Positions 1,927 to 38,222 of a stretch of DNA of 49,875 bases are shown here, in pieces. How positions within the stretch are numbered: position 1 is the stretch's first letter; each line of letters starts with the position of its first letter. Source of the stretch: Asterionella formosa (Eukaryota); assembly GCA_002256025.1 (NCBI GenBank), contig NKIB01002172.1, forward strand, positions 124,001-173,875, read 5' to 3'. The notes under the pieces are model-generated. The model did no database searches. It was not told the origin of the DNA and saw nothing but the letters and a program-made list of their open reading frames with translations. The position numbers and the translations under genes are program-made.

Positions 1927-2708
1927 ACCTAAAAATTGAGAGTCAACCTTATGGGTTCTTTTTTAAGACTGAGAGTCATCCTTTAACAGGGTAATCACAA
2001 GTTTTGGGACGAATATTAGAGATAAGTTGATTCTGTTTAAGACCAAGTTATTCCTTGTTGGCATGTATGGTTGAGAATTTTCTTCATGTATGTATTAGAA
2101 ACCAATATATTGAAGATAATGGCTTAGTTGGTTGAGAATGTTGCCTTTGATCTGAAGCTGTGTTGTTCGATTCCGCAATTTTTTAGAAGCAATTTCTGGG
2201 TTCGACTCCCACACTTCTTACTGTCCTGCATGGTCTTGCCTGGTATGCAAGAAATAGTGGGTTTGCCCCCCTACCAGCAGCTTGTGTCGCCCTCCTGGGC
2301 GGTCGGAGTTTCCCCCAATGTTGCGGCTAAGACAATCACCTTTTGCGAAAGGTGGTTGGGGACTCACCTACGCTAACAAAACTAGGGAAGCACAGTTCTT
2401 GTTGGCAGGTAACAGAATGAATACTTGCCTTGAAAAAGGGGAGTAGCTGTGAATGGGCTATAAAACAGATAATCATTAAAAACCAGCCAATATATTGAGA
2501 ATCATCCTTAGTAGGAGGCAAAATGATTACATAAAAAACTTTCATATCTCAAGAAATATTGACATCACCCAAATTATAATCAGACCTAGTTGTACCTGAG
2601 AGGACGACCTACAATAAGCTTTGTATTTGCTTCAACATTACCATCTAATCAGTCTAAAATAATTAGTCACAACAATGGGTAAATAAGGATGACTCTCAGT
2701 TTTTAGGT
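1927..2708. mobile_element. Non-autonomous TIR element (MITE-like) carrying a nested SINE
   Basis: ACCTAAAAATTGAGAGTCAACCTTA (1927-1951) matches the reverse complement of 2684-2708 at 23/25. An internal copy ACTGAGAGTCATCCTT starts at 1968. No coding capacity. Confidence 0.75.
2114..2486 (+). mobile_element. tRNA-derived SINE-like element, family A copy 1
   Basis: A-box-like TGGCTTAGTTGG and B-box GTTCGATTCC (2165-2174). Body alignable to the copies at 27436 and 37967. Flanking direct repeat CCAATATATTGA at 2102-2113 and 2487-2498. Confidence 0.8.
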
Positions 2709-3094
2709 GGTAACCAGGGTACCCCTATATTGCCTGATGTATAATTAAATGTAACATTGATTTAGACCCCCAGAGCACAGCCTGATTCTTACTCCTATGT
2801 ATGTATATACACATATATTTATATTATATACAGAGTCAAGGCCTAATAAATCATTGAGACGAATATTATATATACTGCTAGTCCAGTTCCAGTACAGCTC
2901 AAGAAATGACTGAGAATTGCAATTACAACTGAACGAAATGCATTTCAAGTTACTTCTTTTAAGTGATGCTATTCTAATGCAGCTAGTTGTGTTTTCATGG
3001 AATTACGAACGAAAATTCATGCTTAGACCATTTGGAGTCATCGTTCCTTGAGCGCAGATATGTAAATCTTGTTTGGAGAGACCCGGACCTTCAC

Positions 3095-4090
3095 TTATCC
3101 AATCATAGGGGGAAAAACAACAAGGTCTTGTTTGTTCACAATAACTCTGACACGGGTGAAAACGTAATCCATGGTCACTGCGCTCCCTTCTAGAACAATC
3201 TCGACACGGGTCAAACATGGCTCCGATGACTCAAGAAAGGCTTTGGCCTCTTCACCAGTTTTACCCACAAGATCTGGCCAAACGCTCATCGAACTGCAAC
3301 CAATAGGGTCAACAGCAGCAGGAGGGCTGGTAACTGTGATATCAACAGGGCAATTGGCGCTACACTTTATGGCAATAGTAGCGCATTCAAAAGTGTTTAC
3401 ATCCGTGCACGTGCACGTGGTTTCAGTAAAGCAATCACCACAGCAGCACACCGAGCCGTATCCGCATCGTTCGCCAATCACGAAATCAGCAGGACAGGAA
3501 TCACCTGTTCCTGGAACATCTGATGGGCAGAGATCTGCAAATCTTGGTACGTACGATTTGAAATCAGGGACACAAATACCTCCACAGTCAGCTCCACCAT
3601 TGTTTGGATCACAATCATCACTTGGATCATCAATGCATGTCAAATTATCAGGGCATGCCTTGCCAACAAAGCCGCCACATGTCTGTGAAGCATTGACACA
3701 GATCCCAAGACAGTCAGCCGCAATGCCACAGTTGGTAGGGTCATTCACACATAACAATCCATCAGGGCACTGAATGCCAAGAAGACCTGCACATGTTGGG
3801 GGAGGTAATTGGCCGTCAACCTGATTGCTAGCTGGAGGCAATGCGCCTCCAGCCTGGCTGAGCACTTTGGTTTTCTTGCTTTTTCCCTTCTTGAGATGTC
3901 TGGTTGCACTGACCATTTCCTTCAGTTCTTGCGGGCCTCCCATCTTTTGGGCATTAAGGATGCCGAAATCAATTGAGGAGGAAGCTTCAGCTGTTTCCGT
4001 GCTGGGAGCACGAAGATAATTCGATTTTTCCGCAGCAACGTTGAAGAGCAAGAGGCCTGAAGCTATCAAAAAGCGGATCAAGCGTGTCAT
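3095..4090 (-). CDS. Secreted Cys-rich multidomain protein with C-terminal potato inhibitor I (I13) domain
   Basis: Signal peptide MTRLIRFLIASGLLLFNVAA; two C-x-G-x2-G-x2-CP-x3-C-x2-DP...ADC-x-GICV repeats; a CCCGxC module; C-terminal WPDLVG...VTMDY..RVRVIV...PPMIG. An upstream start at 4129 is possible. Confidence 0.85.
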   Translation of the reverse strand: MTRLIRFLIASGLLLFNVAAEKSNYLRAPSTETAEASSSIDFGILNAQKMGGPQELKEMVSATRHLKKGKSKKTKVLSQAGGALPPASNQVDGQLPPPTCAGLLGIQCPDGLLCVNDPTNCGIAADCLGICVNASQTCGGFVGKACPDNLTCIDDPSDDCDPNNGGADCGGICVPDFKSYVPRFADLCPSDVPGTGDSCPADFVIGERCGYGSVCCCGDCFTETTCTCTDVNTFECATIAIKCSANCPVDITVTSPPAAVDPIGCSSMSVWPDLVGKTGEEAKAFLESSEPCLTRVEIVLEGSAVTMDYVFTRVRVIVNKQDLVVFPPMIG

Positions 4091-4902
4091 GTTTGCTGTT
4101 TGAATTGTTTTTCTGCGTCGTTGGTACATCGAGAGGGTAAGAGAAATTTATTGAGGAATCTACTATGACACGTAGCACAATACAAGTTTAGATGTCTGTT
4201 ATGTTTCCGGTACTCACCGCGTATTACCTGAAAAGAAAGGATGTAGTTTGTGAGCTTTTCTTAGTGCTCTTATGTAACAAGTTGTTGCAATCATCACGAC
4301 TTAAAGCCGTGAAAAAAGTCACAACAATAGTCGCTTGTGAAGACATGTAAATCAATTTGACACGATTGCCAAATATTCTAACGGGTACACTTACTATACA
4401 TTTTTGTGAACGGGCTTACCGGTACGTTGAGGGTATTGGGATTAGAGCATAAATTCTAGGTTGAAATTTGACACGATTGCCCAGATCTTGATCTAGGTCG
4501 TTAGCTTCACAGGTAACGTCCAAAACACCCTAACTCTCACTCTCACTCTCATTCCGTATTGATAAAAATATACAGGAACAGCTAAATATAGGCACACTTG
4601 AGTTGACTATAAGTTTTTAGGATGACTAGAGTAGGGTAGTGGACTGCCATTTGACACGATTGCAAAGTCTTTAAAGGTTACTCCAGCAAAGCCTACCTAG
4701 TATCACATAACTGTAAATTTCAACGAACTAAACCCTCACCAAACTCAACGCAAACGCTTGTATGCCTTCCAACGGGGTGCATGCTTTCTTAAGTTCATGA
4801 ACAAATAGAGGAAAGATTCGCTTAACGTAATTTAGTTGAAATGGAGAGTAGTTATATTCAATGTATTCAAGTAGAGACTATTATGCATTTACCTCTTCAC
4901 AT

Positions 4903-6831
4903 TTATGACTCTTTCGCCGTGGGCAAGAACCAAAATTGTCGTAAACCAAACCACGTTGTAGCCACCAACAACATACTTGCCGACGATTGCAGGGCGATAT
5001 GCAAGTCTCCTGACCAATCCGCCAGGGCACCCATGGATGTGGCTCCCACCAAAAATCCAACATCACCACTAGTCCGTAATAATGCAATTGCTTGAGCTCG
5101 TGTTTCCTCCGTCGCATGATCTGAAATGTACGCGACAGGTGCTGTCGATAGTATTGTGGAGCCAGTGGCCCATACCCCCAACACAGCGGCCAATTCGGGA
5201 ATTGTCGTTGTCATGGGTAACATTGCCATGCTGACGGATAGCAAGCCACATCCACAGAGAATGGCGCGTCCCTTACCAATGGCATCAACCCCTTTGGCCA
5301 GCACTGGATTGCCAAAGACTTGTACCAAACTCATTCCCATGTACACTTGACCAACTTGTGTGGCTGTCATGTTGAGACCCATTGGGTCTGTTAGTAAAAG
5401 TGGGAGTAATGTCATTTGACTGCCTGCCAAAGCAACCCAGTAAAAGCCATTCATCAAGAGGACATTTCGCAGTTTTGGTTTTGCTAAAAGTGGGACCCAT
5501 TGCCCCACTGCCTTTCGTACTGCTTGCGTCATGGTATCTGTGGGTGGTGCCTTTTTTGGCAGGTCTACTGGTTGCTGCCAGTCGAAGACAATTGGCTTGA
5601 TTTGTGTTTCGTGTAACAACCAATAGTTGACGGCAGTGAGTCCAAAATAGGATATTCCCACAGCATAAAATGTTGGATGTAAACCAATGTAATCTGCAAG
5701 TATGCCACCCAGGGCTGGTCCCAAGGCTGTCCCAGCGGCAAACGCGCTCATAATGGGTGCCATTGTAGTGGCTCGGTTTCGGGGGTTGGAAATGTCTGTA
5801 ATGCTCATGGTCGCTGCTGTAGAGAGCGCAGCAACCCCCAAACCAGTCAGTAGTCGACACACCCACAAGTGTTGAAACGAGGTCGCCAGTCCAATTCCAC
5901 CAACTCCCAATGCGATAACAGAAAGTGAATAGACAAGATATGGCTTACGGCCATGTCGTTCAACAAAAATGGCAGCCGGTATATTCCCTGCCATTTTGGC
6001 CAATGCAAAGGCGGATACTACCATTCCAAATTGTCCCGGGGACAAGCCAAGGTGCTCGACAATAAATGGCATAACTGGTGTAATGATACCTACAGAAGAT
6101 CCAACCAGAAGCATAGAAATGGTAATGGGCATGACCTTGTTTGTTTCCACAGCCGACGCAATCGCCATGAGACTTGTGGCAAACTCGTTTTTAGTGATGC
6201 TCAAACTTGCCTCTGGATATCCCCTAGAAGTGGCATTAAGCAGCGATAAAATGCGTTGTGCTTCGTTCCTTGCATATTTTTTCCTCAGCTGATCTGTCTC
6301 TTCATCTTGATGGCCATTTGGTAGTGAATTTTCGCCTTCCAAGGTTTGTATTCGTTTCAGCAGATACTCTGTAAGGTGGTCCAGTGTCATGATGCTATCA
6401 TTGATTTCGCCGGAATCGTTACTTGTGTAATCGCCTCCGTGGACTTCTGTAAAGTTCCGACTGGCAGCACAGTTGCGGAAATCTTCCTCCAAAGATGGAG
6501 GCCTCGGCATTGGCAAAGGCAGCTGCTGATGGATTTTATCAAAAAGTGCTTCAAATTCGTTTGTTGTGAAGCGGTCAAGTTGGAAGTATTTGTACATTCT
6601 TTTGCGTTCTATGGGTGGCTGCGTCGAGCTCCATCTCTTCTGATGCTGAAAACTGCAGTTTAAGTTCAGTGGAGTTGACGAATGGCGATGTAATAGTACA
6701 ATGCACGACTGATTTAACATCCCTCGTTTATTTCTAGCATGGAATGCCGAGACTGACGGCAGGGGCATTTGCAATGCACTCGGTCTCACTCGACTGGCTC
6801 TTTCTGCTATTAATCGGCACGAGGAATGCAT
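4903..6831 (-). CDS. Major facilitator superfamily transporter with a long N-terminal extension
   Basis: About 12 hydrophobic segments in the C-terminal ~410 aa; motif-A-like VERHGRK; RLLTGLG and GTALGPALGGILAD motifs. First ATG at 6831. Confidence 0.9.
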   Translation of the reverse strand: MHSSCRLIAERASRVRPSALQMPLPSVSAFHARNKRGMLNQSCIVLLHRHSSTPLNLNCSFQHQKRWSSTQPPIERKRMYKYFQLDRFTTNEFEALFDKIHQQLPLPMPRPPSLEEDFRNCAASRNFTEVHGGDYTSNDSGEINDSIMTLDHLTEYLLKRIQTLEGENSLPNGHQDEETDQLRKKYARNEAQRILSLLNATSRGYPEASLSITKNEFATSLMAIASAVETNKVMPITISMLLVGSSVGIITPVMPFIVEHLGLSPGQFGMVVSAFALAKMAGNIPAAIFVERHGRKPYLVYSLSVIALGVGGIGLATSFQHLWVCRLLTGLGVAALSTAATMSITDISNPRNRATTMAPIMSAFAAGTALGPALGGILADYIGLHPTFYAVGISYFGLTAVNYWLLHETQIKPIVFDWQQPVDLPKKAPPTDTMTQAVRKAVGQWVPLLAKPKLRNVLLMNGFYWVALAGSQMTLLPLLLTDPMGLNMTATQVGQVYMGMSLVQVFGNPVLAKGVDAIGKGRAILCGCGLLSVSMAMLPMTTTIPELAAVLGVWATGSTILSTAPVAYISDHATEETRAQAIALLRTSGDVGFLVGATSMGALADWSGDLHIALQSSASMLLVATTWFGLRQFWFLPTAKES

Positions 6832-13217: not shown

Positions 13218-13924
13218 TGTTTTTGTAGTTGTGACAGTATTTACAGGCGTCACTAATAACTGCCTAACCCTGGAGTACTTATTTGAATAAAGTGGAAGTA
13301 GTGTTTGTTGTGCCTTTTCAACGGTACTCCGAGTACGAGGTAATGGTGTACAAGGCTCCGGCCTGCCAGTACCTGCCTGGTACAGCTGTGTTCAGCTGCA
13401 GCACCGTGGTTGTCTGGTAAAGTACTGGGTATTGACACGATTGAGATTTTCGAAATTATAGGCAGGGAGGAGCAGCCAACGTGTGAAAGACAAGTTTTGT
13501 TCTTGGTTGCTCATCACGAGCTGTGTACGACCAAATTAGGCGCGAATAGTGCGCAAAGAAGGAAGCACAGTGGACGATAGCCGAGCCGGTGTTTCTCCTT
13601 CCTTCCCCTGTTGTCATGGATTCGTCCTCGGACAGACAATCCGTACGACAGCAAGAAGTTGAAGTCGAATCATACATGTCATACCTACCGTTACTATGCT
13701 CCCAGGTCCCAGGTACCGTACTATGGTACCTGGTACCTGGTACGACCAGCTCGTACCATACGACTGTTCACGAGAAGTGACATTCTGCCACTTCTTGTGC
13801 TTTGCCACTTTCCTGTGCATTTCGTAACCAACCAGTATTTGTCCTCATCATCGTCGGGGGATCAAAGGTACTATCACACTCGTTCTTGTCATCTATTGGA
13901 ATGCCACTTACGATTTATGCGACA

Positions 13925-15460: not shown

Positions 15461-17895
15461 CCAGTTAAAAACTGTAAGCTACCGCTATGGTGACTTTTGA
15501 ACTGTAAACCACCGCTTAACAGAGTGAATGCACAGTTTGAACTTAGTTTGAAAGATATGCTATTTATTGTCACAAACAAGTTGTTGAGATTCATATAGCA
15601 AGTAAATATGTATGTACTTTTTTTGTTGCATTGTGTACATTGTTGATTAGATATTATCGCCCAAAGGTTGCTATTGATACGAAATTGTGGAAATTTTTTA
15701 ACATTAACTCTATTGAGCCAGCGTCACCTTTCATATACGTATTAAGGTATGGAATATTCTTCAGATAGAAAACAAGTTTAGCATCCCAAAATAGTTATTT
15801 AATATGGCTTTGACATCATTATTCTTTCGCTCATGCACCTTAAAAAAGTGATAAATTCACATTTGGAAAACATCAAATTGGAATTCCTGACACGCCCGAA
15901 TAATAGTACAAAATTGAAAAGGCATATACAACAATCACCCACAATACTAATCATCATGACATTAAAAGCACCTAAAAAGCAAGGAAATGCCTTGCCTAAA
16001 AAAATTGCCTTCTGAAGGGCTTGACAGCAGTCAGATTTGTCTTAACAATGTGATTAGGGAGCTAGAAGCTACTAAAAAGGCTAGTAAAAATGGTGGAAAA
16101 ATGCCTTGTGGTGCTATTTTTGATTTTCCCTTGGATATCTGTCAACCAAGTGAAAAATGAAAACGAAGTGCTAAACCTAGAAGTTAAGTCTACTACTATG
16201 ACGTACAAGGACCAGTCTGCGATATGGAAGAGAAACAATTGCCTGGATATTGCTGTGCTTTGGAAAACAACTCTACTTTCACTGCAGAGCTTCTGGTTGG
16301 AATGCTAAAGCACATGGACAACTCTGGCATATTTCCTCGAAACAATGGGCCCCCACCCTTCCTAATACATGATGGTCACAGGTCTCGATTTGACATTTTT
16401 TCCTCAAATGTTTACAACCCAGCTCACAATTGCACAGTCTGTATTGCTGGTGTTTCTTATGGTACAAGCTACTGGTAGGTTGGAGACAGTAGTGAGCAAA
16501 GCGGTTATTTCAAAATGAACATCTCAAAAGCAAAACGCGAATTCCTTAAAAGTAGATCACAGGCAAGAACTTACAATTAACAAAGTTGACATTGTTGGAC
16601 TGGTGGTGAATATGGCATCGGGAAATTCCTTTGCAAATATTGCGACAAAAGGAAAGTGTTTTGTTTCATGGTTCACCCTAAACTATAATGTCTTGCTGCA
16701 CCCTGAGATTCAATTGACTCAACCACAACAGAACATCATTGCGCACACAGAGACTACTGCTGCCCTCCCTCCTGATGAGTTGAACCTTCATACTGGCTTT
16801 GCTGGAACAAATGTTGGAAGAATTAACGAGTTTTGCAAACATGAGGATGTGTGAACCAGGAGGCCCAAGCTAGAAAGAGAAAGGAGACAGCAGATGCCCA
16901 CATCGAAGGACACACGAAAATGATAAACAGTAGTAGGACTACTGCTGGCCTCTGCACAAACATTTGCCCTTGGACCAAATATTCTTGCTGCTGCATTAGA
17001 ATGGAAGCGAAATTTCGACATTGCTATTAGTACAAAAGAAAACAAAAAGGCAAAAAGAATTCCATACTCTTCGAGAAAAAAATTACATTGAAGGGACAAA
17101 CAAAACAAAACAAAACAAAAGAAGAATTGTCAGTGTCAGAACTGAAATTGATTGTGCGTTTTTACAAAGAATCAGGTGATTTGCCTGTTCCACAAACTAA
17201 TTACAAGATTCGATGACATCAATCACCATTTTGACCACCACCAGCTGCCATTATCTCTCTATGCACCTCCTCCTGCTGTGATTGTTGTTGTTGCTGCTGC
17301 TTTGTCTGCTGCACATCCTCCTGTTGCAGTTTCTGCTACTGGTCCTACTAACGATCCACCAATCTGTGATGAAGTTTGAGACTCTGCGAGTAATTGAATG
17401 AGAAGCTCGTGATTTATGTAATTCATCAGAAGATTTCTCTGACAATGATGCTGCCCTGCAAAATTGTATAACGTAAAGTACTAAGAAAAAGAATTCACAT
17501 AGTATAAACGGAGTAAAAGTAAACACAGTTTTGGGGGGGGGGGGGGGGAGTTTTTTTTATTTAGGCATAATATATTTTTTTTTTTTTAACCCCCCGCCCC
17601 CCCCCCCCCCCTCCCCCCCCCCCCCCCCCCCCGCCCCCCCCCCCCCCAATATTTTCATATGCAGATAAAATATTATGTACTGTAAGCCACCGCTCTGCGG
17701 CAATCATAGTGAGTTGGGAAATTTTTTATCTTCATGGCTCAATACACAGAATCAAAACTGATTGCTTAAAAGTATAGCAGAGAGAATCTTCTAACATATA
17801 CTTTATGCTTGCATAAAGTTTTGATCGTTGTATTTAATAAATACTTTTAGTCGGAAGATAGAGTAAAATAGCAGTGGCTTACAGTTTTAAACTGG
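15461..17895 (+). mobile_element. Decayed pogo/Tc1-mariner-type DNA transposon with terminal inverted repeats
   Basis: Left TIR CCAGTTAAAAACTGTAAGCTACCGCTAT (15461-15488, preceded by TA) matches the reverse complement of 17868-17895 at about 25/28. Subterminal CTGTAA(A/G)CCACCGCT copies near 15503 and 17681. Frameshifted DDE_1-like fragments (PFLIHDGHRSRF, GVSYGTSYW*VGDSSEQ) at 16224-16560. Confidence 0.8.
17532..17647. repeat. Poly-G, poly-T and poly-C low-complexity tract
   Basis: A long G run, T runs, then about 55 nt of nearly pure C. Confidence 0.9.
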
Positions 17896-20380: not shown

Positions 20381-20759
20381 TACGACGGTGGAGCGAGCGT
20401 CCTTGCTGAATTTGCGAGTAACGCGAACGTCGGTTTTCAGATGAGGCAGTAGTCCCGACACCGCTAGCTTGAAGTTTGCGGTTCGTCTGTGAAAAAATGT
20501 TGCAGCATACCTATGAATGATGAAGTCATTTAATGGTGAACGTCAACAGTGGTACCTGGTACCTGGTAGTACCAGGTACCAGGTATGTTGGAAGATACAT
20601 ATGTCCAATACGTAGGTATGTGCCAGTACTTCAAGATATGGATTTATGACAGACAGCATTCTACTACCTGGTACCAGCAGTATGCTGACCCAACAAGGAA
20701 TGCAATAAATTTATATGGCTGGGTGCATGATCGAAGAACATACCGGTATACTGGAAGCT

Positions 20760-23035
20760 CTCGTAGGCCTGGTTCAAACCGCTATTTCTAAAAATATAGC
20801 TAAAAATTTTTGCGCGATGAATCTCTTGTTGTTACAACCATCACCATGTTGATTGCACTCGGTTGGTTCCCTTTGCTTCCCTTCAGTGCCCTGTGTTTTG
20901 CGATAAGTATTAGAACCGTGATCATAGTGCTGATCGGAAACCAAACTGCAAAACAAAAACAGATGACATCAAACTTTCAGTTGTTTGGACGATATTTTCT
21001 TTGCTGATGGCGGAGTCATCACTACGTGGCTGGGAACTGGATTTTGTGGAGATGTTCCTGATGATTGCGATGTCTATGAAGACTTATCAGCAAGACCAGG
21101 AGTTGTTGAGGACAGTGAAATAAACAACATCAGAGAACAGTTCCTTCTGACCTATGGTTTGACAAAGATCTCAATTTGTACAATTGCAAGGTGGATACAT
21201 GCAGTTGGATTCAACTATGAGACTCAAAGGAAACATTACTTTGTCGATGGTCATGAGAAGGCAGACACCTTAGCCTACCGTCGAATTTTCATTGCTGAAT
21301 ACTTCAAGCAAGAGGTTAATGCTCCAAGGTGGGTACATTTTACAGCAGAAAAATCTAAACTTCTAGAGTCACAACAAGGTTTAGTTGTCAAGAATACTGG
21401 ATTTCATTACAGTGACCATGATGGAATCTCTATGGTAGAATATCATGCAGACAACTTTGATACCTCACCGGATCTTCCAATGGGAGGCAATTGTAGTGTG
21501 CGAAAGAAAATGACGAGCAAACTGTTATGATTGTTGGACAGGATGAAGCAATATGCAAATAATTCTTGTTGAATTCCAAGATGTGGACAGGTCCAAATGG
21601 CAAGAGACCCCTACTACCAAAAGATGAGGGTGCTGGAGTAATAATCAGGTCATTTATCACTTGAGAGAATGGCTTGATAAGAGAAATCGATGACAATGAT
21701 CTTCTTACAATGGTCAATGCCAATAGACTTGGAGCAAGTTATGCAGATGAGAAAGCTGCAATTTGATGTACATCGGACCAAAAAGAAGAAGCTATTGACA
21801 AGAAAAATTCTCCATTCTTAGTCTATTTTGATTATGGAGAAAATCGGGATGGCTACTACTGGAATTACAATCACATGGTGTGTCAATTCGAAGGCACAAT
21901 TGATGTACTAAAAGTGATGCATCCACACTATAAGTTTGTTTATGTATTTGACCATTCAAGTGGACACAGCAAACATAAACCTGATGGATTGAGTTCAATC
22001 AGGATGAAAAAACCTTTTGTGGAAAAGGGTTGACCATGCAATCTACAATCATTGAACAAGAAGCAGGATTCCTTGGCCCGTTTCAAGAAAAATTACAGCC
22101 TGGTCAAACAAACACCTAACATTCCAACCTGATGATGTTGGCCCATGTTGGATGACTCCTGCTGAACAAGAAGCAAGTCGACATGATACCGTCATTGGAT
22201 TACCCAAGGAAATTCAAAGAAGTCGTGCCCAATTAATATTCGATCTTGCTGCTAAGGGAGCCAATACCAAAGGGAAGAATAAAAGCGATCTGGTGCTCCT
22301 CTGTCCACAACATCAAGTGCCAACATCGACACAAATTTCAAGGGTCAAGGAGAGTTGGGAAGGAAAATCTGAGGGATTGATTCAAGTGCTTTGGGAAAGG
22401 GGATTAATTGATGGAACAAAGTTGAATAGCTACACACTTACTGGTCGAAAAGATGCATTTGGCCTAATAGAGTGCAACACTAGTCTTCGACATCTTATGT
22501 ATGTCCTTGTGTTCTGACTTCTTGAATGAACAAGGCCTGATGCAATATATTGGGACCAAACTTGGAGTGTAAGTAATGCTAAACTCCAAAATGCCATGCC
22601 GAGATAGCTGGTGGGGAAGGTGTGGAATACATCATGTGGGCATGTGCCAAAGGCACATACCGGAACCTGGCACTGAAGGAAAAGAAGGGGAAATCGAATT
22701 TCATGGCAAGTGTTAGTAGAACATGTTTGTCAGCAGAAGTGATTACAGGAGCCCGAATGTTGGCTTACCATGCTCTTGATTCTGGCTTATTTGAACCAGA
22801 ACTGCAACAGCAGCGATCCAAGGATGGCCATGTCGAAATCGACGATCTTATAAAGAAGATGAAGATACATCGATGTGCCTTGGACTTCGATTACAAGTTT
22901 GTAATGAATGTAGATGAATAAAGCGATCGCTGATGTTGTTATATGCTTGTCAACATTACATAAACTCATGCACGCATATATTTATCCATAAAATATTCCC
23001 TATGCTAATTATCTATCATACTAGGGCTACGGTGG
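20760..23035 (+). mobile_element. Decayed DDE transposase element (IS630/Tc1-like relic)
   Basis: Interrupted fragments ISICTIARW, YFVDGHEK, GQDEA, LPKDEGAG, FDHSSGH, GLIQVLWERG, PKCHAEIAG.EGVEY.WACAK with many stops and frameshifts. Ends are tentative (weak TCGTAGGCCTGG / CTAGGGCTACGG inverted match). Confidence 0.75.
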
Positions 23036-24298
23036 TTACTATATGTACTCTGAGCATGATGAGCCATAAATGAAAATTATTTGAAGGGGCTAAAAATTAC
23101 TTAGAGTACTTCCCTTTTGTGTTTGACAAAAAGTACTATGATGACAGTAAGTAAGAGGTGACAGGTATGGTGAAAGGCTGCGTCAAGAAAGCGATTGTGC
23201 TTGCTTGAAGACATCATGCAAATACTAGGTACCTGGTACCACAGCAGGAAGCATCCCAGGTAATTTCACTACCGGTATCTTTCCCTTGTGAACAAGCATC
23301 ACATAGTATCTATCTGGTAGCAATACCGGTAATCAATTCTATAGTTTTGTTGTTAACACTTTTTTTCAGAGCCACTGGTATTGACTTGCAAGTGGACCAT
23401 TGGTCCAGGGGTGATAGATATATTTGTTTAAATTTTTTTGTCACAGGCATCCAGCTGTCCTACTAATCTAGCAGTTGCAAGCCATTGCTGGTACAAAGCT
23501 ATATGATTATATGAATTGTTAATTTATGCACAGGGCTGTACGAAGTGTTGTTGAGGAATGAAATAGTTGATATTCTTAGTTGTACTAAAGGGAAAATTTG
23601 TCTAGTTGGGGAGATTGGTAAAAAGTGGAGATGCATTGCTTGAGGTGGAAGATATTAGAGAGAGTCAGACAAAACATTTTTGTCAGTGTATTCACTCGAA
23701 TAGTGGCTAGAGTTTATGCTTCACGCTGAATTTAGGTCAGAAACATTTTGATGCATAACACGCAGCATATACATGCTAAGCGGCTTGTATTGGATATTTT
23801 TGTTGATCTGGTCATCATGATGATAAGGTTAAGTGCTATGGTCTGACATACTACCGGTAGTCACTTTGACCAAATTGCGGCTTTTTTGTGAAGGTTTTTC
23901 CACCCTGGACAATGGCTGTAAAATACATATTCCTTATTCGTAGCTAGCACATACCATCAGAGTTACCTCAATCATCAAAAAAAATTCTTTGACCATGTGA
24001 TATATTTCTAGATAAATCATTCACAACATCACTGATACCATCACATGGCCAAATCTGTCAAAAAAGGCTCATTGGACGACGATTTTGCCACAATCCACCA
24101 TTTCTTTTCTCCTTGTCCCTTAGCGTTGCCTATTTTGAGAAATGCGCAGATGCTTTCGTCGTGATTTGTTCTCAGCGCTTGTTTATATTTTGCTCACTAC
24201 ATAAGATCTAACGGTTCTACTCAGCACGCGGTATATGCTAAAAAGATATTGATCAAGCTACATTTTTTAAATATTATCATATTTTTGGTTTCTTATCC

Positions 24299-24386
24299 GC
24301 AAGTTGCGGTAATTTTGTTCAACTAAGGATTTAGCTTTTTTAAACCTATGTTAAATTGTTTACTTAAGCAAAATGACCGCATCTGG
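24299..24386 (-). mobile_element. ~90-bp mini-MITE, reverse-orientation copy
   Basis: Reverse complement aligns to 33884-33972 (GCGGTCATTTTGCTTAA...AAAGCTAAATC.TTAGTT...CCGCAACTTGC). Confidence 0.75.
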
Positions 24387-26181: not shown

Positions 26182-26494
26182 CTTTTGCTGACATTGTTAT
26201 TATCTCCTCAAAATGATACATGAAACTTGAAGAATGTGGCTTGTTGCCATTCTTAATGGTAGCAACAATCAACCATGAGAGCAAAGGTAAGTTATTTGCA
26301 CATTGCCTGCTCCAATGAAAATTGGAGCAAGTTTATTTGATTGTTTCGTCGCACATATCATGGCTGTGGAGATGGCTTCCTTGGCTGATGCAACACTTTT
26401 GCTCACATTGTTGTTATTTTTATCTCCTACAGGAAAATGATACGACAAGAACCTTGGAGAATGTGACTTGCTGCCATTCTCAATGCTGGTAGAA
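26182..26494 (+). repeat. Imperfect ~90-bp direct duplication
   Basis: TTTTGCT.ACATTGTT...TATCTCCT..AAAATGATAC...AGAATGTG.CTTG.TGCCATTCT.AATG at 26182-26265 and 26397-26494. Confidence 0.7.
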
Positions 26495-27435
26495 TTTTGA
26501 ATAAAGCATCATCAATTTCGCTTACTCTCTCATTTCATTTTGAATTAGCAATGATCTAAACAAACATCGCAACCGGAAGTGAAATTAAGGTATCGAAGCA
26601 AGACGATTGTGTGCTCATTCTGTTAGAGTATGCACAGTGGAAAGTATGCGTGACCAGAAGTATAATCAAGAGTATGAAATAGCGATCAATTTAATTCGAT
26701 TTGTGTTCATTTTTGATCGAACATGATAATAAGTTTTATCAATGATGGCAGGAATTTTTTAGATCAGTAGAAGTACACTTTAGATCGAAAGCTCAAATAC
26801 AATTTGATCACAGCATGCCAAAGGTTAGATCGAATGAATAGTTGATTGGATCTAACGATTACTATCTTTAGATAGTAAACCGAAAAATTATTTGATGAAA
26901 AGAATAAGTGTGCTGTGTTAACAGGAAGCGTATTGTTTGATCCATTAATCTGAAATTAATTGATATATACATGATGAGCGAGTGCATAATGAATAAGGCA
27001 GAATACTCATTGATGCGACATTGCAATTCATTGAATATTATATAATGCGTGTATGATCTATGATAAAGGTGAGCGTGTGTGATCAATTGTAAAGAAGTGA
27101 TTGATCAATGAGTTTTTCTGTATGATCAATCAAATTATGATACGTCATACCGCGATTTTTTTGGGGCAATGGATAATAGATTAAAACTTTTAGGCCTAAC
27201 TTTTTTTAATTTACAGACGTTAATCTTCAAGTCTCTGGAGGCTACAACTGAGGTTACTGTGCCAGGCCGAACATAGGCAGGCTCCAAAGAAGTGTCTACA
27301 GTATCTATGGATGCTCCTGACGGGTTCATGCTGCTAGCGTGATGTTTACGGTTTTTAGACTCTTATGGGCATAATTAGCCATCATGTATCATTTGCAAAA
27401 ATCAGTAAATGTATGTATATATATACAGTTGAACA

Positions 27436-27806
27436 GGGAATGGCTTAGCTAGTGGTTTACCATGTTGCCCTTGATTTGAGGAGGAGGTTGGGTGGTTCGA
27501 TTCCTACACCAAGTTTTTTGAGAAGCAATTGTTGGGTTCGACTCCCACACTCCTTACCATCCCGCACGGTCTCTCTCCCCCCCCTACAAGCAGCTTGTGC
27601 TCCTCCCTTCCTAGGTGGCTGAGAATCCCCTAACGCTGTGGCTAGTAAGACGATCATCTTTCGCGAAAGGTGGTTTGGGAGGGCTCACCTATGCTAACAA
27701 TTCTAGGGAATCACAAGTCTTTTTGGCAGGTAGTAGTAGGAGCACAAAGAAAAACTTTCCTTTCGACATAGGGGAAAACGAATGGGCTATAAAACATAAT
27801 AAATTT
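27436..27806 (+). mobile_element. tRNA-derived SINE-like element, family A copy 2
   Basis: Head GGGAATGGCTTAGCTAGTGG, B-box GGTTCGATTCC (27494-27504), shared body and 3' GAATGGGCTATAAAACA. Perfect 18-bp flanking repeat TATATATACAGTTGAACA at 27418-27435 and 27807-27824. Confidence 0.88.
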
Positions 27807-28392
27807 TATATATACAGTTGAACATTTGCATTTTTCAAAGACTCTCTTTATATCGCAAATCATGCGTATCCTATTATCAATTACGCTTATACGTAATTCA
27901 AATATATACAATGCACGATGATATCATTGTTTTCCACGACCTGATGTACTGTTTTTTTGAATTTTTTTCGTATCAACTTTTTTACCTAGTACAAGTCAGT
28001 GATTAAATTAAGCCCCTCAATTAATGGGAGTCATACTGCATTTTTCAAATTGTAGACATCATATAATTTTTTGATCATTCATTTTTTCATATCAATGAAA
28101 CTGTTCATGATTTGATTAATATCATTCCTTGATCAAATGTAGTATAAGATATACGAATCAAACTTCATCGATTATGGATCATACTTTCTGCCTGGTTGGA
28201 AATGATAACCAGTAAATTAGATAACTGATAACAATATTTATTTATTATGATCTTACTTCGCATTAAAATCATTTTATCCAACTAATCAAAATTAATTTTG
28301 ATAATTCATTTTTTCGTATCAATGACATCGTTTCTATCATATGATCAATTTGCTTTTTTTGAATGTATACTAAGATACTACCCTTTATCTGT

Positions 28393-28652
28393 TATGGATA
28401 TTACTAATGCTAGGTTATTCTATGTGACGCCATTATTGCTTACCCCCTCGCTCTGTTTGTTATGGATAACAATGGTAGGTTGTTTCTACATGATCGTTTT
28501 ATTGCTTAACCTCTTTCTGTTGCTTATAGATACCAATACTAGGTTGTTTCTAAATGACCGTGTTATTGCCTTTCCTCGATCACCTATAGATACCAATGCT
28601 AGGTTGCTTGCTTCTACGCGACTGTGTTATTGTGTACCCTCCATCACCTTAT
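28393..28652 (+). repeat. Degenerate minisatellite, four units of ~60-68 bp
   Basis: Each unit reads TAT(G/A)GATA..AAT..TAGGTT..TTCTA...GA....TTATTG. Confidence 0.8.
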
Positions 28653-28924: not shown

Positions 28925-29900
28925 TTATTGATTGATGTTTAATCGATTTTCAATGTTGCGTCTATCAAAGCCAACATGATTCCCTACATGGAAAACGTCG
29001 AGCCTCGTCTGCCTATCGATATCTCTTACCATCAGGTGAGCCCCTCCATGGCTGACATCAAAATCGACATGATTGATGCCAACGGCTGATCCCAAACCAC
29101 AGTTTTTGATATCTAGAACAACAAGCAAGTCCTCAGCCTATCATGTCTTGATTGAAGTTAGAACTGACATAAATGCAAACAACAGCTGAGCAATCCCACT
29201 GCTTGGTGGCCAAAAATGAAAATCAACATGGTTCCCAAAACTGATCCCACACCTTGGCCAATGTCCTAACCAATGCTATTGCCGCCAGCTTACCCTTCAG
29301 CTTGGCCGACATTGCTGCAACAGTTGACCCAACTTCTTTGGATGATGCAAATCTAAGCCAAGCTTGGTACCTACAGCTCCTGTTCATTGTGGCAACTTCT
29401 CACCACTCATTGTCACGCCTAGCAACCACAGTAACACGATTTGAATTTCCTGTTGTTCGAAGCCCAATCGTCCTTTGGCAATTGTTCGCCAAAGTTCGTG
29501 ATCCAAACATGTCAAAATTAATGTGTGTCTCATCAATATTGACAATGTTGTCAGCAGGAAACTCGAGCGCAGCAATTTGATTGTTAATATAGGCAACTAA
29601 ATCCTGAATCTTCTCCTCATCCAGCCATGTTTTTTTGAAGTCATGAGTCACACATCGGATGACAGCGTCTTTGAGGGCAAGCCAGCGCTTGATCCTCTTT
29701 TCAAGTGCCTTCAAAGACACACTTTTCTTCCCTGGTTGCCTCTTTATCTCAACGCTGAGTATTCTAGTGGTGCAGGCCCTATATTGAAGCCGCAAGTGGT
29801 CAAAAAGCTAGAATCCTCAAGCCTTTTGAGAATACCAATTATCAAACATACCTTTTTGATTTCGAGAACACAACATATTATGTAAACACTTCCATTTTGA
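28925..29900 (-). pseudogene. Decayed pogo-like (DDE_1) transposase
   Basis: IVNIDETHINFDM...TL...TIGLRTTGNSNRVTVV followed by frameshifted GEKLP; upstream HTH-like RIKRWL segment. Boundaries approximate. Confidence 0.65.
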
Positions 29901-30180: not shown

Positions 30181-30289
30181 TTCATCATGTCTTGCTAAAG
30201 CCAGGCAGGTTGTGAATATAGGCTTGAATTATTAATTATATACCTTGTTGGATATTCAACATTTTTAAAATAATTCTCGCTATGTGTAT

Positions 30290-32759: not shown

Positions 32760-33081
32760 GGATCGAATTTTCCCGAGGAATTAGTAATTGTGAGATTTAT
32801 ATCGTAGACAATATAGATGTAGATTCACTCATCCTGACGAAACTCGACGTCGTTAGATGGGAAATGCACAGTCTCGTTACTAGTACTGTTGTGAGCGATG
32901 TGAGAAACAAAATGCAAAGGAATGGCCGGTAATAGGCTTTCGTAATAAACAAAGGGGCACCTATGTAATGTTATGTTCGCCTTGATCAATCATGCATGGT
33001 TCATGTCCATCTCACCCATTTACACACGGTACTGGAATGAATAGCTGTGGTGTAAATCCATACCATCGTGTTTTGTTTCAT

Positions 33082-33554
33082 TTAGAATTGATTAGGATCT
33101 GGTAAGTTGGACAAAATGACTCCAGCTGCACCAGCAAAGGCAGCCAATCCTCCTCCTGCGATAAGGAGCGAGCTGGTCTTTTCTTCACTTGACTTGGTTT
33201 CAACTTCTACCTTGGGTTCAATGGCCCAAACATTCGACTTTCCATCTTGGTCCACTGAAACACCTCGTTCAACTTTTGACACCATTTGGTAGTCGTCATT
33301 GTCACCGCTAGCCATGTTGATGCGTTGGATTCCAAAGGTAGCTGACGTCGTTGGTGCTGTATAAAATTAGGAGTTAGGGAGAAGGAGGGTGTGAGCAAAG
33401 CTGTGATTCGCAGTACGAAACAACAGATGACTACTAGCTGTGATTCGCAGCACGAAACGGACGGAACCAAAAGTGGAGAATAATACAACGTACTTGTGAA
33501 AGCATTGGCAGATGCAAAGAGAGAAAGAGCAACAATGGCTGAAATGCGGGACAT
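33082..33554 (-). CDS. Small plastid-targeted protein with C-terminal TM helix; exons 33554-33494, 33356-33082 (111 aa)
   Basis: MSRISAIVALSLFASANAFT signal + AF motif; in-frame GT-AG intron; hydrophobic LLIAGGGLAAFAGAAGVIL. Confidence 0.8.
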
Positions 33555-33883
33555 GGCAGAAGGAATGGGAAAGAAGAAAGTATATTCGAGAAAATGGGAA
33601 TGATGCTGGGGATCACGGAGATTATGACGACAGAGTGCTCGACGATCTGATTGTTTCTGTTCGTCGAGAGATGCGACGTTTTGATGACCAAGCTGCAAGC
33701 TACGACTGCGGCGGTCGAGATGCAAAAGTCAGAACGTGGCCACGTTAATGTAATTTTTACCCTGGCATTCTATGTACCGGCACCGTCACATACTACCGGT
33801 AGTTATAAGTACTTCTGGATATGTACATAAAAACCATTCATGTATATTCCTACATAAGCAAGGAATATTGTTTATATTCCTCT

Positions 33884-33972
33884 GCAAGTTGCGGTCATTT
33901 TGCTTAAATAGACAATTTTATCTAGGATAAAGAAAGCTAAATCTTTAGTTCTGAAATACATCCGCAACTTGC
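33884..33972 (+). mobile_element. ~90-bp mini-MITE
   Basis: Perfect 11-bp inverted ends GCAAGTTGCGG / CCGCAACTTGC; three further copies in the window. Confidence 0.8.
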
Positions 33973-34734
33973 CTGGCATGCATTAGATCATCTATATCAT
34001 ATATCGGGAGTATGCCGGTATACGAGTGTTGTAGGATAATACCCTTGACATGAATGATTTATTTACGGACAAATGAGCACGGTATCTGGTCCGACTTGGT
34101 AACCAGGTATCATGCCACCAAGGACTGTAAACGGGAGGGATATTCTAAGAATCACTGTTCGGGAGAAAATGATGTCATCACAAGAAATGGAGTCAGACGT
34201 GCGACTGCAATGATAAACCAGTACCAGGTACCTGGTACCAAGAACGACCCGCTGATGCACCGATATGGGTACCGGTACTCTAGTACATACAATAAGTACC
34301 AACCAGGTAACAGCGACCATTCGGACTGTGACTCATCATAAATACAGTGCGTACTACCGTTTAAATGTATGCTACCGACGGTGCGTGACAAGCAAAAGAG
34401 ATCTGTCATTACTGGTACCCCTAACCTTAATACTAGAAGTACATACGTATGTCATTTTTAGTGGGCACTATTCGTACATGAGTATGCACGCATGAGTTGA
34501 CATCCAGATGCATTTTTGTATATCTATACACAAATACCGGGTGTTCAGGACTTGTCTTCACATTTGTACGATGTACAATGGCTGGCTGGCTGGCTAATCG
34601 AAAGCAGCGGGCTTCCCTATAAATTTGCCGCTGTACACCAAACATATTTAGCAATGTGTAAAATGTGAACGAACCAGGGGTACCTGGTACCTGGTACAGT
34701 GTCCTTAGTAGCTGATGCTGGGTACCCCGAGTAA

Positions 34735-34830
34735 CAGCAATTTGCGGTCATTTTGCTTAAATAAACAATTTAATATGGGATAAAGACAGCTAAACCTTTA
34801 GTTTCAGCACAATCACCGCACAGCTGCTGG
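34735..34830 (+). mobile_element. ~90-bp mini-MITE
   Basis: Aligns to 33884-33972; ends GCTGG followed by TA. Confidence 0.75.
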
Positions 34831-35277
34831 TAGAGTCAAGGTACGAGGTTACCTCGGACTAGTAACAACTACGTATGTACGTCTGGTTTTGTTACCGCAG
34901 GTATCATGTCCTCTCTTGCTGCCTGGCTGCCCATTCAATCTACCGTACTTGCTTCAACACCACCACAGGGGTTGATTCGAATCAGATACTTGCTATCGTA
35001 CCTGGTACACGGAGTACATAAACTGACTGAGCAAGATCTGACCATGTTTTATGTACCTGTAGAGATAATGGCGACATGCGTACATCAAGTAGCGCTTTTT
35101 TATCATGTCAATATTTTACGTACATCAAGTATTATCCTTATTTCATCAGACTCGGCTGATAGTCAACGGTGTTGCTTCTTTACATTACTGGAGTTATTAA
35201 ATCCCTTTCATACTGTTCGTTGCAATTAGAGTCCCTCCCTCCATTTCACTGCAGAGAGAAACTCAAACGAAATAACC

Positions 35278-35796
35278 ATGGCATTCATCATCCAGTCACC
35301 CTGTCGGGCCCTTTTCCTCGCGCTCACACTCGTCAGCTTAACTTGCTCTTCTGCGTTTGCACCAAAGGCTCCATCCTTTGTAGGACGTCCATTCTTTGCC
35401 GAAGAAAAAGATGTCGTTGAGGACCGTCGTAACCCCGATCGTCCAGAATTGCCGGAACTCAAGGGAGACTTTGACTGGGATGAAAAGTTCGGAGCAGATG
35501 ACGACTGGATCACCGAAAACGTACCGGGTAAGATTGTTCTCAATGAATTGCAACTAGCTGCTCAAGTTGCAGCTCTCAACAAGCTGGAAGAAAAGTGGCG
35601 CAAAAAGCGGGCCAACGAAGAGTATGACGATGCTCGTTTGTTGGGATGGACGAAACAAGCCGAAACGTACAATGGACGGTTCGCCATGTTTTTCTTGGTG
35701 GTTGGGTTGTTGACGGAACTTTGGACAGGTATTTCGTTGCCAGGACAAGTCGAAGAGATGCTTCGAGTTGGAGGAGTGATCGGATTTGATGGATAA
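35278..35796 (+). CDS. One-helix LHC-like protein (OHP2-like / HLIP family), plastid-targeted
   Basis: Signal + SSAFAP; single LHC helix GWTKQAETYNGRFAMFFLVVGLLTELWTG followed by GQV...GVI. Confidence 0.9.
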   Translation: MAFIIQSPCRALFLALTLVSLTCSSAFAPKAPSFVGRPFFAEEKDVVEDRRNPDRPELPELKGDFDWDEKFGADDDWITENVPGKIVLNELQLAAQVAALNKLEEKWRKKRANEEYDDARLLGWTKQAETYNGRFAMFFLVVGLLTELWTGISLPGQVEEMLRVGGVIGFDG

Positions 35797-37966
35797 GGAA
35801 CTCGTTTGGTTGGTGGCTACAAGATTTATCAAGAGCGGAACAGGTATTAGAACGAATTTTAGAGCATATAAATCGGGTGGAAAGATGTTGCTTTCTCTAT
35901 GACTCATGAACAACTAGCTACAAAATACCATTGAACCGTAATATTACATGGATTCACATTCACAAAGCGATGACTTTATAACCCAAAATATGGTAGAGAA
36001 CAACATCACTCTACAGTTATCGCAAGTACAAATTTATGACTTTAAATTAGGATTAATTTGAATTCAATTTAATCTATCATGACACTATCGGTATCATGAT
36101 TTCAATGTAACCTCACACATTATTTAAATACTAAATCCTCTAGTTAGGAATGTAAAGGTCAATTAATTTTAGTAACAGTAAAATATTTCATTTCACTTAT
36201 TGTCTTCCTCATCCTTTCATAATTCTAGGAAGAAGCACAGCAACAACAAACCTTCATTTGATCGAGTTTCACACTATTAGGACATCCTTTGCATTCTCTA
36301 GAATGTCTTTTACCCTCAGGATGATATCTTCAAATATCTGTGGACTGCATCATTGCACTAGAATTATCGTCAAATTTGGTTCAGAGAACAACCTAACAAT
36401 AACAAGCAAATTTTTTCTGTATTACCATATCCCCTCTCATCTGTGGTCAAGACTGAAATTGCTGTCTCCAGATAGACAATGATAAGAGACTAAGACGACA
36501 AGATTTTATTACAGCATCACCAACCAAGAGGGTTAACCCAGGGTCAACAGAGAAAACCCAATCCCAGTGGTAGTGTTCTGGACTTGTATTATATTGGTTT
36601 TATCATGGACTGTTATTTTGCTGGTATCCTCTCCATCTTCACGTGGAACAATGTCGAAAACATTCATACGATTGCCAAATTGTAGTGTCTGAACTTGTGC
36701 GGCTTTGGTCCTTTTCTTTAAAGGTGAAGAAAAATCATTGTCAGATGGTGGAGATATGTCCATCATCTGCCTTCTTCCTGACCTATGTGTGGAACAGCTG
36801 CTGCCTTGTGGAACAACTCAGCTGTCTTACATTCATTGCAATGTTTGTAATGAAGGTTAAAAAATGGAAACTTCCTACTTAGCAAGCAGAAATCTTCATC
36901 GATGCTTCATGATAAAAACGATTAAACAATGATATTGGATTTGTATTATAGAAAAGACCGATTTTTTGACTGGTTGTTTGCAAAAAAAGAGAATATTTCA
37001 TTGAGTTGGATCATCCTCACCTTCTCTACTTGTTTTCTTCTTTTGACATATTGTGGTAGATAAAATTGTGCCTGTATACTCGATTGAGCTGTTCCAAGAA
37101 GGAGAAGTCCATGTGGAAGACCTCCTTTTCAACTCACAACAATGACATGCCGTGAACGAATACATTCTGAAGCTGTATATATATCATTGATTTTTACCAT
37201 CCTCAGGTCCTCATCATTTTATTCTTTTTTCATATTGAACTTGATAAAGTTATAATTTTTTACTTACCATCATAGCTGCTCTAAAAAGAGAAAATTATTG
37301 TAGCAGATCTCATTGAAAGACAACAAATATGATAACAGAAAGGGATAAATCATCTTGTTTTGTTACTAGCTATGATGGAAGTTTTACCAAGTCACTGCCA
37401 AGAAGGGGTCGTGGGCAATTTCCTGAAAAGATTCTCCGCTTGTCAGGGTGAATTCTATGGCAAAAGGGACAACCAGGTACTACAATGATCGTAAGACTAG
37501 TTCGCCTTCATGATGATCCATGATCAGTAGCACCTGAATTGCAGCACTGGGATAGACTAAATAAGGCAGAGTGAGCAGACCCATTTTTCAAATGATGAAA
37601 CAAGCACATTGATGTATGATATACACATTTCTCCTAAACTAAATGCCATATCGGATTTTAAGAACTCTTGTATGTTTCTGGGAAGTTGTGGTAAAAGATG
37701 ATACTTACAATGACTGAAACAAAACTAGTACATTTTTCGCCTACTGTAACTTGCTTAGTACTAAGGCAATCACTAGACCTACTACTTTCAGCATGCATAT
37801 TATGTAAGAAGTGCTACTCCCTCACATATCACGCAAATGATTCAAATTTGTTTACTAAAATGGTTCCCAACATTTAGCATCATGTTAAAATCAAGTTATA
37901 TAGTAACAAAAAAATATTGTTTTTTGAAGATCTTGCTATTGTTGGTATAGTATTCCCTGAGGGTTA

Positions 37967-38222
37967 GGGAATGGCTTACCGGTAGCGGTTAAGAATGTAG
38001 TCGTTATAAATGAAGTGGTTGGTTTTATTGCTGCTCCTTTTTTGAGAAGCAACTATTGTAGGGGCTCAATTCCCACATTCCTTACCATGCTAACTTCCTA
38101 AATGGTCGGAGTTCCCCTCCTCTAACACTTTGGCTAAGATGACCAGCTTTCATAAAATTGGGTTGGGGAATCACCAACAGGTACATTAATGAAACTAGGA
38201 AAGCAAAAGTCTTGCCAACAGG
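37967..38222 (+). mobile_element. tRNA-derived SINE-like element, family A copy 3 (old, degraded)
   Basis: GGGAATGGCTTA head, TTTTTTGAGAAGCAA, TCCCACA.TCCTTACCAT, GGTCGGAGTT, GGCTAAGA, GGTTGGGGA.TCACC and AAACTAGG.AAGCA are collinear with copies 1 and 2. No TSD found; 3' end uncertain. Confidence 0.75.

Follow-up and report, generated by a model that had tools for sequence, protein, structure and literature searches.

A probable tRNA-derived SINE family with a doubled T-arm in the diatom Asterionella formosa

Three similar stretches lie within the 49,875 nucleotides of Asterionella formosa DNA analysed here (the window), and the question they raise is what kind of element they represent and how it spread. 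They are best explained as copies of a tRNA-type SINE, a retroposon that does not move autonomously, with target-site duplications (TSDs), a tRNA-like head, a structured non-coding body and a 3′ stem-loop, a reading to which a probability of about 0.87 is given. That the host is a diatom is supported by positions 418-960, where a gene for a fucoxanthin-chlorophyll protein lies; its top match among solved structures was FCPI-12 (E 8e-82).

The coordinates that an earlier note, made from the letters of the window, had given for three collinear copies proved to be exact:

2114-2486, forward strand: copy 1, full length (373 bp), by profile and alignment; 87.6% identity to the metagenome copy L005 over 322 columns
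27436-27806, forward strand: copy 2, full length (371 bp), a single-copy locus
37967-38222, forward strand: copy 3, older, head kept; the profile envelope reaches 38243

These copies are collinear, interspersed and non-tandem, dispersed at distances of 25 and 10 kb. Alignment gave 68.7% identity over 386 columns between copies 1 and 2 (E 6e-39) and 75% over 76 nt between copies 3 and 2 (E 1e-8). In copy 3 some 60 nt are missing internally, together with the entire 3′ end, and copy 2 carries a body deletion of about 21-23 nt after 27572 relative to the family. Copy 2 apparently landed in another repeat. A fourth copy was not found in the window with a profile built from the three, and the ORF check revealed no coding frame of at least 90 aa in the window copies. 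Two further copies, L005 (family sequence at 565-891) and L001, were identified in metagenome contigs with unrelated flanks; the other three of the five metagenome loci (L002-L004, mutually identical) were dropped as chance, their matches extending over only 26-28 bp. No family copy was detected in viral contigs (0 matches), prokaryote genomes (0) or E. coli; phages gave none in one search and in another only short matches at E 0.4 or worse, and plasmids gave matches at E 3 or worse.

Both TSDs claimed earlier were perfect:

2102-2113, forward strand: left TSD of copy 1, 12 bp, exact repeat
2487-2498, forward strand: right TSD of copy 1, 12 bp, exact repeat
27418-27435, forward strand: left TSD of copy 2, 18 bp, exact repeat
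27807-27824, forward strand: right TSD of copy 2, 18 bp, exact repeat

TSDs of variable length (12 and 18 bp) are found in two of the four copies with both flanks present, and a search around copy 3 and L005 gave none. When search boxes of similar size were placed at random window positions, an exact repeat of at least 12 bp was obtained in 3 of 1000 trials, and one longer than 12 bp in none of 1000. The objection that a perfect TSD is too improbable on a decayed copy was dismissed, as non-CpG divergence is only 8-10%; the probability of a TSD staying perfect was 0.14-0.38 for 12 bp and 0.02-0.16 for 18 bp. The 5′ junction of copy 2 was crossed unchanged by contigs of runs X1, X6 and X11, with no joint skipping the element; an empty allele was not seen among four runs, whose contigs show presence, not absence. 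Of 20 runs containing the sequence, these four served as evidence, the other 16 having small shares.

All 16 flank pairs compared proved unrelated, with scores of 16-23 where the background had a median of 18 and a 95th percentile of 23, and the ends showed no LTR-type or TIR-type structure, so that two refuting cases named in the earlier note, shared flanks from a segmental duplication and an LTR, both failed. A MITE, a solo LTR or a segmental duplication with fortuitous tRNA-like motifs is extremely improbable, since the TSDs of 12 and 18 bp are not of a single short fixed length, a terminal inverted repeat is as absent as any relation between the flanks, and the tRNA likeness covers the whole head and not 18 nt, even if the conserved end segment ends in CA and the tRNA 3′ end on the minus strand resembles a primer-binding site.

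The head of the element was delimited in copy 2 by shuffle test, motifs and pairing, and showed the following features:

27436-27559, forward strand: tRNA-like head of copy 2
27436-27442 and 27548-27554, forward strand: 5′ and 3′ acceptor strands of copy 2, 6/7 pairs
27441-27455, 27494-27503 and 27535-27544, forward strand: A box, B box 1 and B box 2 of copy 2
27556-27559, forward strand: ACCA after the 3′ acceptor strand of copy 2
2120-2131, 2164-2173 and 2199-2208, forward strand: A box, decayed first B box and second B box of copy 1
2179-2184, 27514-27519 and 38038-38043, forward strand: six-T run between the B boxes in copies 1, 2 and 3

The A and B boxes were assigned by box motifs, and they stand at tRNA spacing in copies 1 and 2. 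The head is doubled, with two T-arms and their B boxes about 40 nt apart, followed by the acceptor strand and ACCA; the single B-box unit implied earlier has to be replaced by two, the earlier note having overlooked both the T-arm doubling and the six-T run. The claim of intact B boxes in copies 1 and 2 holds for both boxes of copy 2, but in copy 1 only for the second, the first being without its first G. Acceptor pairing between the 5′ end and the strand that follows the second T-arm reached 6/7 in copy 2 and 7/7 in copy 3, whose head retains ACCA, and only 4/7 in copy 1.

Comparison of the heads with a panel of 105 phage tRNAs, chosen without regard to motifs, gave best scores of 44.5-58.6, with shuffled means of 29-31 and shuffled maxima of 35-44; the head is tRNA-like beyond shuffled sequences. 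Gapped alignments to the phage tRNAs, in which long gaps were needed, showed 57/73 and 61/84 identities for copy 2 and 50/73 for copy 1, the SINEBase tRNA criterion being at least 60% identity over at least 60 nt. The Rfam tRNA models returned nothing significant (best tRNA-Sec, 20.6 bits, E 0.045 with a 156-nt query), and ARAGORN at its default threshold called 0 genes. At relaxed thresholds ARAGORN called Ser, Ile, Leu, Tyr, Lys or Pro for the same heads, and therefore the parent tRNA cannot be named; the phage panel placed Leu first and Ala mid-table, a longer head favouring long tRNAs. Internal A and B boxes are an indication, not proof, of a tRNA-SINE (SINEBase, PMC3531059).

The internal duplication amounted to 23/35 matches at offset 41 in copy 2, reached by 0/300 shuffles, and to 22/35 at offset 38 in L005, reached by 1/300; in copies 1 and 3 it did not reach significance (65/300 and 237/300 shuffles). 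Part of this identity is the T-arm motif common to any two tRNA arms. The head would derive from one tRNA, perhaps in its mature form because ACCA is present, and a later internal duplication of about 40 nt would have doubled the T-arm and B box. In jerboa and rodent B1 SINEs with a doubled B box the internal duplication is 7-29 nt long. According to the available part of PMC8466645, the jerboa elements Dip_a2 and Dip_b2 and rodent B1 likewise gained a second B box by internal duplication; lengths of 7 and 16 nt are given there, whereas here about 40 nt and the whole T-arm are involved, with a T run between, and a common origin is not implied. The term 'quasidimeric' (PMC3531059) fits the internal duplication of this element, which is so placed by definitions and not by sequence comparison.

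The body and the 3′ end contained these features:

27652-27675, forward strand: central 10-bp hairpin of the body in copy 2, also in copy 1 and L005
27756-27777 and 27780-27796, forward strand: 3′ stem-loop and conserved end segment of copy 2, candidate LINE recognition region
2422-2445 and 2451-2467, forward strand: 3′ stem-loop and conserved end segment of copy 1

The common 3′ segment reported previously was borne out by 17 nt identical at 2451-2467 and 27780-27796. Ahead of the tail, the 3′ stem-loop folds in 4/4 copies having the region. The folding of the body as a whole did not surpass that of shuffled sequences (z 1.22, -0.30 and -1.22), with negligible covariation (2/62 pairs). A simple-repeat or poly(A) tail was absent, the end being only degenerate and A/T-rich, and neither a LINE nor a LINE-like tail was found in the window, nor any LINE tail match in viral contigs. 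Stringent-type SINE/LINE pairs, as described in the available part of PMC3747384, are alike in lacking poly(A) and in carrying a conserved hairpin that lies 25-50 nt from the 3′ end. The TSDs fit LINE-type insertion, and the element would have been inserted by a LINE.

In the best-matching public run (X1), 137 contigs diverged at 27572 into a body segment absent from copy 2, and 132 diverged at 27510-27515 into the family head. The locus's own contigs had depths of 689-1155 and the element bins of 19,700 to 1,465,900; the summed element depth was 17 to 2,100 times single-copy depth, a range and not a copy number. The 137 contigs at one point, among which alleles could double-count, together with this depth excess indirectly indicate a high-copy family, in agreement with the abundance that the earlier note had inferred. 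A young subfamily of copy 2 was rejected, since the contig of copy 2 has the depth of a single-copy sequence (689) and its diagnostic sites set it apart from nearly all the others.

In RNA run X20, an RNA library from a community in which DNA or a further species may be present, the element bins reached 1.7-2.8e-3 of their X1 depth, against 4-6e-5 in four of the five bins from neighbouring repeats, an enrichment of the element of about 25-60-fold over neighbouring repeats. This is a weak hint of element transcription; the RNA contigs cover the element without information on start, strand or polymerase. The RNA enrichment and several neat body hairpins would also suit processed pseudogenes of an undescribed cellular structured RNA, composed of a tRNA-like leader and a hairpin-rich domain or bearing a ribozyme, and the stretch after the second T-arm looks by eye like the P3-L3-P1-GG core of HDV-like ribozymes. 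Such an origin is nevertheless very improbable, as Rfam 15 yielded no match at gathering score, the folding energy is at shuffle level, and the copy number is far above that usual for RNA pseudogenes under the SINEBase definitions (PMC3531059). A known ncRNA gene, also foreseen as a refuting case, thus failed, no Rfam family being matched. An HDV-like ribozyme was rejected after a descriptor search with 0 strict matches, the relaxed matches arising in 15/100 and 69/100 shuffles, and a hammerhead was rejected because its core is absent from both strands of L005.

The dispersal, TSDs, tRNA-like head, lack of coding frames and copy number thus uphold the SINE reading of the earlier note, of which LINE mobilisation and Pol III transcription are inferred parts. 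Source copies would be transcribed by Pol III via the internal A and B boxes, the reverse transcriptase of a resident LINE would bind the transcript, the 3′ stem-loop being the likeliest site, and target-primed reverse transcription into a staggered nick would give the 12-18 bp duplication.

Three of the four copies covering the site have the six-T run some 80 nt from the start of the element; in L005, the most consensus-like copy, it is broken by a G. A run of five Ts is enough to terminate Pol III almost completely in mammalian cells (PMC8466645, available part); on diatom Pol III terminators nothing was found in the literature, the available part of PMC5121945 being silent on Pol III terminators. 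By analogy, the run should stop Pol III, which would be odd within an element. Most simply, the run may have arisen by decay of one that is interrupted in the source copies, as suggested by the G in L005, or it may be partly read through. It is unlikely that the tract belongs to the active element, with read-through by diatom Pol III, or re-start or anti-termination at B box 2, giving two RNAs. In that case an 80-nt tRNA-like head RNA would be made besides a full-length, CCA-bearing, hairpin-rich RNA, the latter copied by the LINE, the run would be an attenuator of SINE copying built into the element, and this would be the first SINE family in diatoms to be described by structure.

Quite improbable is a LINE-mobilised retroposon in which Pol III halts at the run and the copied RNA arises by Pol II read-through or from an upstream promoter; it would insert like a SINE yet fail the Pol III definition. 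Copies 2 and 3 begin at tRNA position 1, as Pol III initiation predicts, and the interrupted run of the most consensus-like copy also argues against this reading, to which the run in 3/4 copies and the commonest family contigs of run X1 (69 of the 132 loose ends), joined where a six-letter run would place them, lend some support. Relative to DNA, the RNA cover is equal to either side of the run, as for copies inside mRNAs, but even RNA cover equally fits full-length Pol III transcripts of a SINE.

The family resembles the tRNA-derived SINEs of SINEBase (PMC3531059) in its length below 700 bp, interspersed position, many copies, head-body-tail organisation and A and B boxes. For a long time SINEs were regarded as rare among single-celled eukaryotes, and putative ones are recorded, in the available parts of the sources, for Phaeodactylum tricornutum (13 copies, 1,454 bp; PMC5859163, which with PMC7466962 also gives the former view), Cyclotella cryptica (PMC7466962), Skeletonema costatum (cited in PMC8147415) and Pleurosigma pacificum (PMC12803021). 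In those parts they are pipeline classes whose head, TSD and tail are not described, and supplements may hold sequences; the present family, at 370 bp against an average of about 110 bp in P. tricornutum, is also far more abundant. The description of SINEs as poorly documented in diatoms was fair on these sources, though reports of them exist for at least four diatom genomes, and a tRNA-derived SINE in a diatom is an element of a well-known kind, barely described in this group. As a concrete diatom SINE, the family combines TSDs and a defined head with a copy number of hundreds or more, and it offers a natural test of the site at which diatom Pol III terminates, with no general principle changed; its possible uses include insertion markers for freshwater populations and access to the CpG methylation of repeats in diatoms.

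Relative to L005, CpG positions were changed in 7/28, 7/28 and 12/22 cases in the three copies, as compared with 8, 10 and 17% elsewhere. All three copies in the window are old passengers and not source genes; inserted copies would have been methylated and then decayed, and 24 of the 26 changed CpG positions are C>T or G>A.

The three copies of a tRNA-headed SINE of ~370 bp (family A) which an earlier note had proposed from the sequence were all recovered in their places, and the target-site duplications (TSDs) ascribed there to copies 1 and 2 proved to be exact:

2114-2486, copy 1, exact 12-bp repeat on both flanks
27436-27806, copy 2, exact 18-bp repeat on both flanks
37967-38222, copy 3, no flanking repeat

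Copies 1 and 2 were 68.7% identical over 386 alignment columns (E 6e-39), and a search with a profile built from the three copies revealed no fourth copy in the window. In a chance control with search boxes of similar size, an exact 12-bp repeat was found at 3 of 1000 random window positions and a longer one at none. The flanks of the window copies and of two further copies in metagenome contigs outside the window (L005 and L001) were compared in 16 pairs, every one of which scored at background; the copies are therefore dispersed, and segmental duplication, which the note had held to be a possible refutation if flanks were shared, was ruled out. The 10-mer ATGTATGTAT is present at 2086-2095, shortly before the left TSD of copy 1, and at 27409-27418, on the edge of that of copy 2, and a target preference is possible from these two cases. 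The gene at 418-960 matched FCP proteins (best E 8e-82); the host is a fucoxanthin-bearing alga, consistent with a diatom. Of the public runs which contain the region and name their source, most carry the label freshwater, lake or algae metagenome.

A single pattern scan across metagenome contigs yielded five loci, three of which were dropped as copies, the match spanning 26-28 bp only. The remaining two were L005, with 87.6% identity to copy 1 over 322 columns and 76% to copy 2, and L001, a 3' part of the element with 78% identity to copy 1. The contigs of 4 of the 24 listed public runs were compared with 26900-28300, and in all four the loose ends of family contigs enter a body segment present in L005 and missing from copy 2, which makes L005 the most suitable proxy for the family consensus. 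In the best-matching run, X1, contigs of the copy 2 locus itself had a depth of 689-1155, and the element bins summed to a depth of 19,700-1,465,900 (17 to ~2,100 times that of the locus's own contigs; 11-700 times in a second run, X6), sums which are not copy numbers, the top figure being inflated by overlapping short contigs and the low ones deflated by the 80% threshold applied against copy 2, itself diverged. A firmer floor was given by the distinct contigs diverging from copy 2, 132 at 27510-27515 and 137 at 27572, in line with the high copy number anticipated in the note. The family is abundant, and we infer hundreds to low thousands of copies. A short palindromic GGTACC-rich repeat lies at the contig start of L005 (20-48), with such repeats also at 13686-13772 and 20541-20585 of the window, which suggests that L005 stems from this species or a near relative.

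The first 7 nt of the head, adjoining the TSD, pair in acceptor fashion with the stretch that follows the second T-arm (6 of 7 pairs in copy 2, all 7 in copy 3 and 4 in copy 1), and ACCA stands two bases beyond the 3' pairing strand in copies 2 and 3 and L005. The A box is located at +6 of the element, and there are two B boxes, spaced by 41 nt in copy 2. Two units of the head resembled each other when offset by 38-41 nt in copy 2 (23/35, 0 of 300 shuffles) and L005 (22/35, 1 of 300), the likeness in copies 1 and 3 not being significant against shuffles; the simplest reading would be a single head of tRNA origin in which ~40 nt were duplicated internally. The head is tRNA-like: against 105 phage tRNAs, not selected by motif, each of four heads (window copies and L005) outscored all 40 of its shuffles. 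No single parent tRNA stood out: ARAGORN found no tRNA in the heads by default and gave conflicting isotypes when relaxed, and Rfam gave only sub-threshold tRNA-Sec matches (none in one query). L005 has neither A box nor TSD, and the first 35 nt of its head (528-565) are strongly unlike the window copies at the usual head length; either its head is of a different variant or the copy is truncated.

The body, non-coding in the window copies, contains a central hairpin of 10 bp. A stem-loop, which folds in all four copies that retain the region, closes it, with 17 invariant nt and a short, A/T-rich end lacking poly(A) downstream. Whole-body folding was no better than in shuffles, covariation was almost nil (2 of 62 pairs) and no Rfam family matched the body, which answers the note's other proviso, a known ncRNA gene. 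A ribozyme-bearing element was rejected, descriptor matches in the body not being above chance.

The family is real, and it resembles a tRNA-SINE in its mode of working. In the points compared, it agrees with the SINEBase criteria as outlined in PMC3531059, the tRNA-identity rule and Pol III transcription set apart. Doubled B boxes are described for Dip and B1 SINEs in the relevant part of PMC8466645, and a 3' stem-loop like that of this family is given as typical of stringent SINE/LINE pairs in a passage of PMC3747384. SINEs are reported in four diatoms, the main-text portions at hand carrying no structural description (PMC5859163, PMC7466962, PMC8147415, PMC12803021), and SINEs are also known from oomycetes. 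No described diatom SINE family was found in the mostly open-access literature covered.

The best reading, with a probability of about 0.87, is that source copies would be transcribed by Pol III from the internal boxes, that the reverse transcriptase of a putative LINE partner would bind the 3' stem-loop of the element RNA, and that the DNA copy would be inserted at a staggered nick. No LINE tail match was present within the window. The weak point of the Pol III reading is a six-T run between the B boxes in all three window copies, since five Ts stop Pol III almost fully in mammalian cells, according to the part of PMC8466645 concerned; nothing on diatom Pol III terminators was found in the literature. 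Either the run is interrupted in the source copies, as in L005, where a G breaks it, or the polymerase reads through it, or the RNA that is copied does not come from Pol III, a reading which we consider quite improbable.

In the RNA run X20 (one community library, assembled contigs), depth relative to X1 was 1.7-2.8e-3 in six element bins and 4-6e-5 in four of five bins of the neighbouring high-copy repeats (1.8e-4 in the remaining one); relative to X6, the ratios were 0.42-1.41 and 0.03-0.07, respectively. DNA carry-over would affect this repeat and its neighbours equally, and transcription of the family is therefore probable, with start, strand and polymerase not visible in contigs. A related alga with the SINE and without the neighbouring repeats could also give this pattern. 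Two other repeats of very high copy number flank copy 2 (27088-27181, X1 summed depth to 3.5e5; 27810-28060, to 1.1e6); each occurs once in the window and has little cover in the RNA run.

The copies are decayed. Non-CpG differences from L005 amounted to 7.8% in copy 1, 9.8% in copy 2 and 16.9% in copy 3, rates at which perfect TSDs are unsurprising, and 7/28, 7/28 and 12/22 CpG positions, respectively, were changed. An excess of C>T and G>A at CpG is a mark of CpG methylation, and 24 of the 26 CpG-position changes were of these types. Copy 2 as a young subfamily was rejected, copy 2 being a single locus. Its 5' junction was unchanged in contigs of X1, X6 and a further run, X11, and no joint skipping copy 2 was found among the contigs of the four runs. 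Two contigs, one from X20 and one from X1, extend from the right TSD into a high-copy repeat in one direction and into unaligned sequence in the other. In the X20 contig, the terminal 20 letters of the loose end could be aligned with 27391-27411, close upstream of the left TSD, with 15 matches in 21 columns and a single gap, by eye and in AT-rich sequence of one contig. Both contigs hint at a related empty site, and thus copy 2 may be nested in an older repeat, the one at 27810-28060.

Other features of the window were as follows:

24293-24384 (-), 33880-33972, 34737-34832, 41958-42056, second dispersed family of ~90-95 bp, four copies, 81-90% identity
26177-26258 and 26391-26485, duplicated 90-bp unit, 76%
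28390-28650, tandem array, 64-bp period
16188-16854, 20967-22921, 29400-29807, 40343-41255, broken frames
46127-47785, coiled-coil-like frames, partial internal duplications 46644-46714/47264-47334 and 46934-46989/47460-47515
43043-45925, 960-aa frame, internal duplication 43769-44092 versus 45449-45772, 67%

The second family has short inverted ends and is MITE-like. We take the broken frames, by eye, to resemble decayed DDE transposases; Pfam at E 0.001 gave no match in six scanned pieces of them, nor in two scanned coiled-coil-like frames. At 26738-26809 there is a sub-threshold C/D snoRNA match (snoR66, 32.6 bits versus 43, E 0.0057), and at 17531-17647 a long run of G precedes a long run of C, a hairpin-capable pair which yields spurious miRNA matches. 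The internal duplication of the 960-aa frame is such that its product would comprise two similar domains in tandem.
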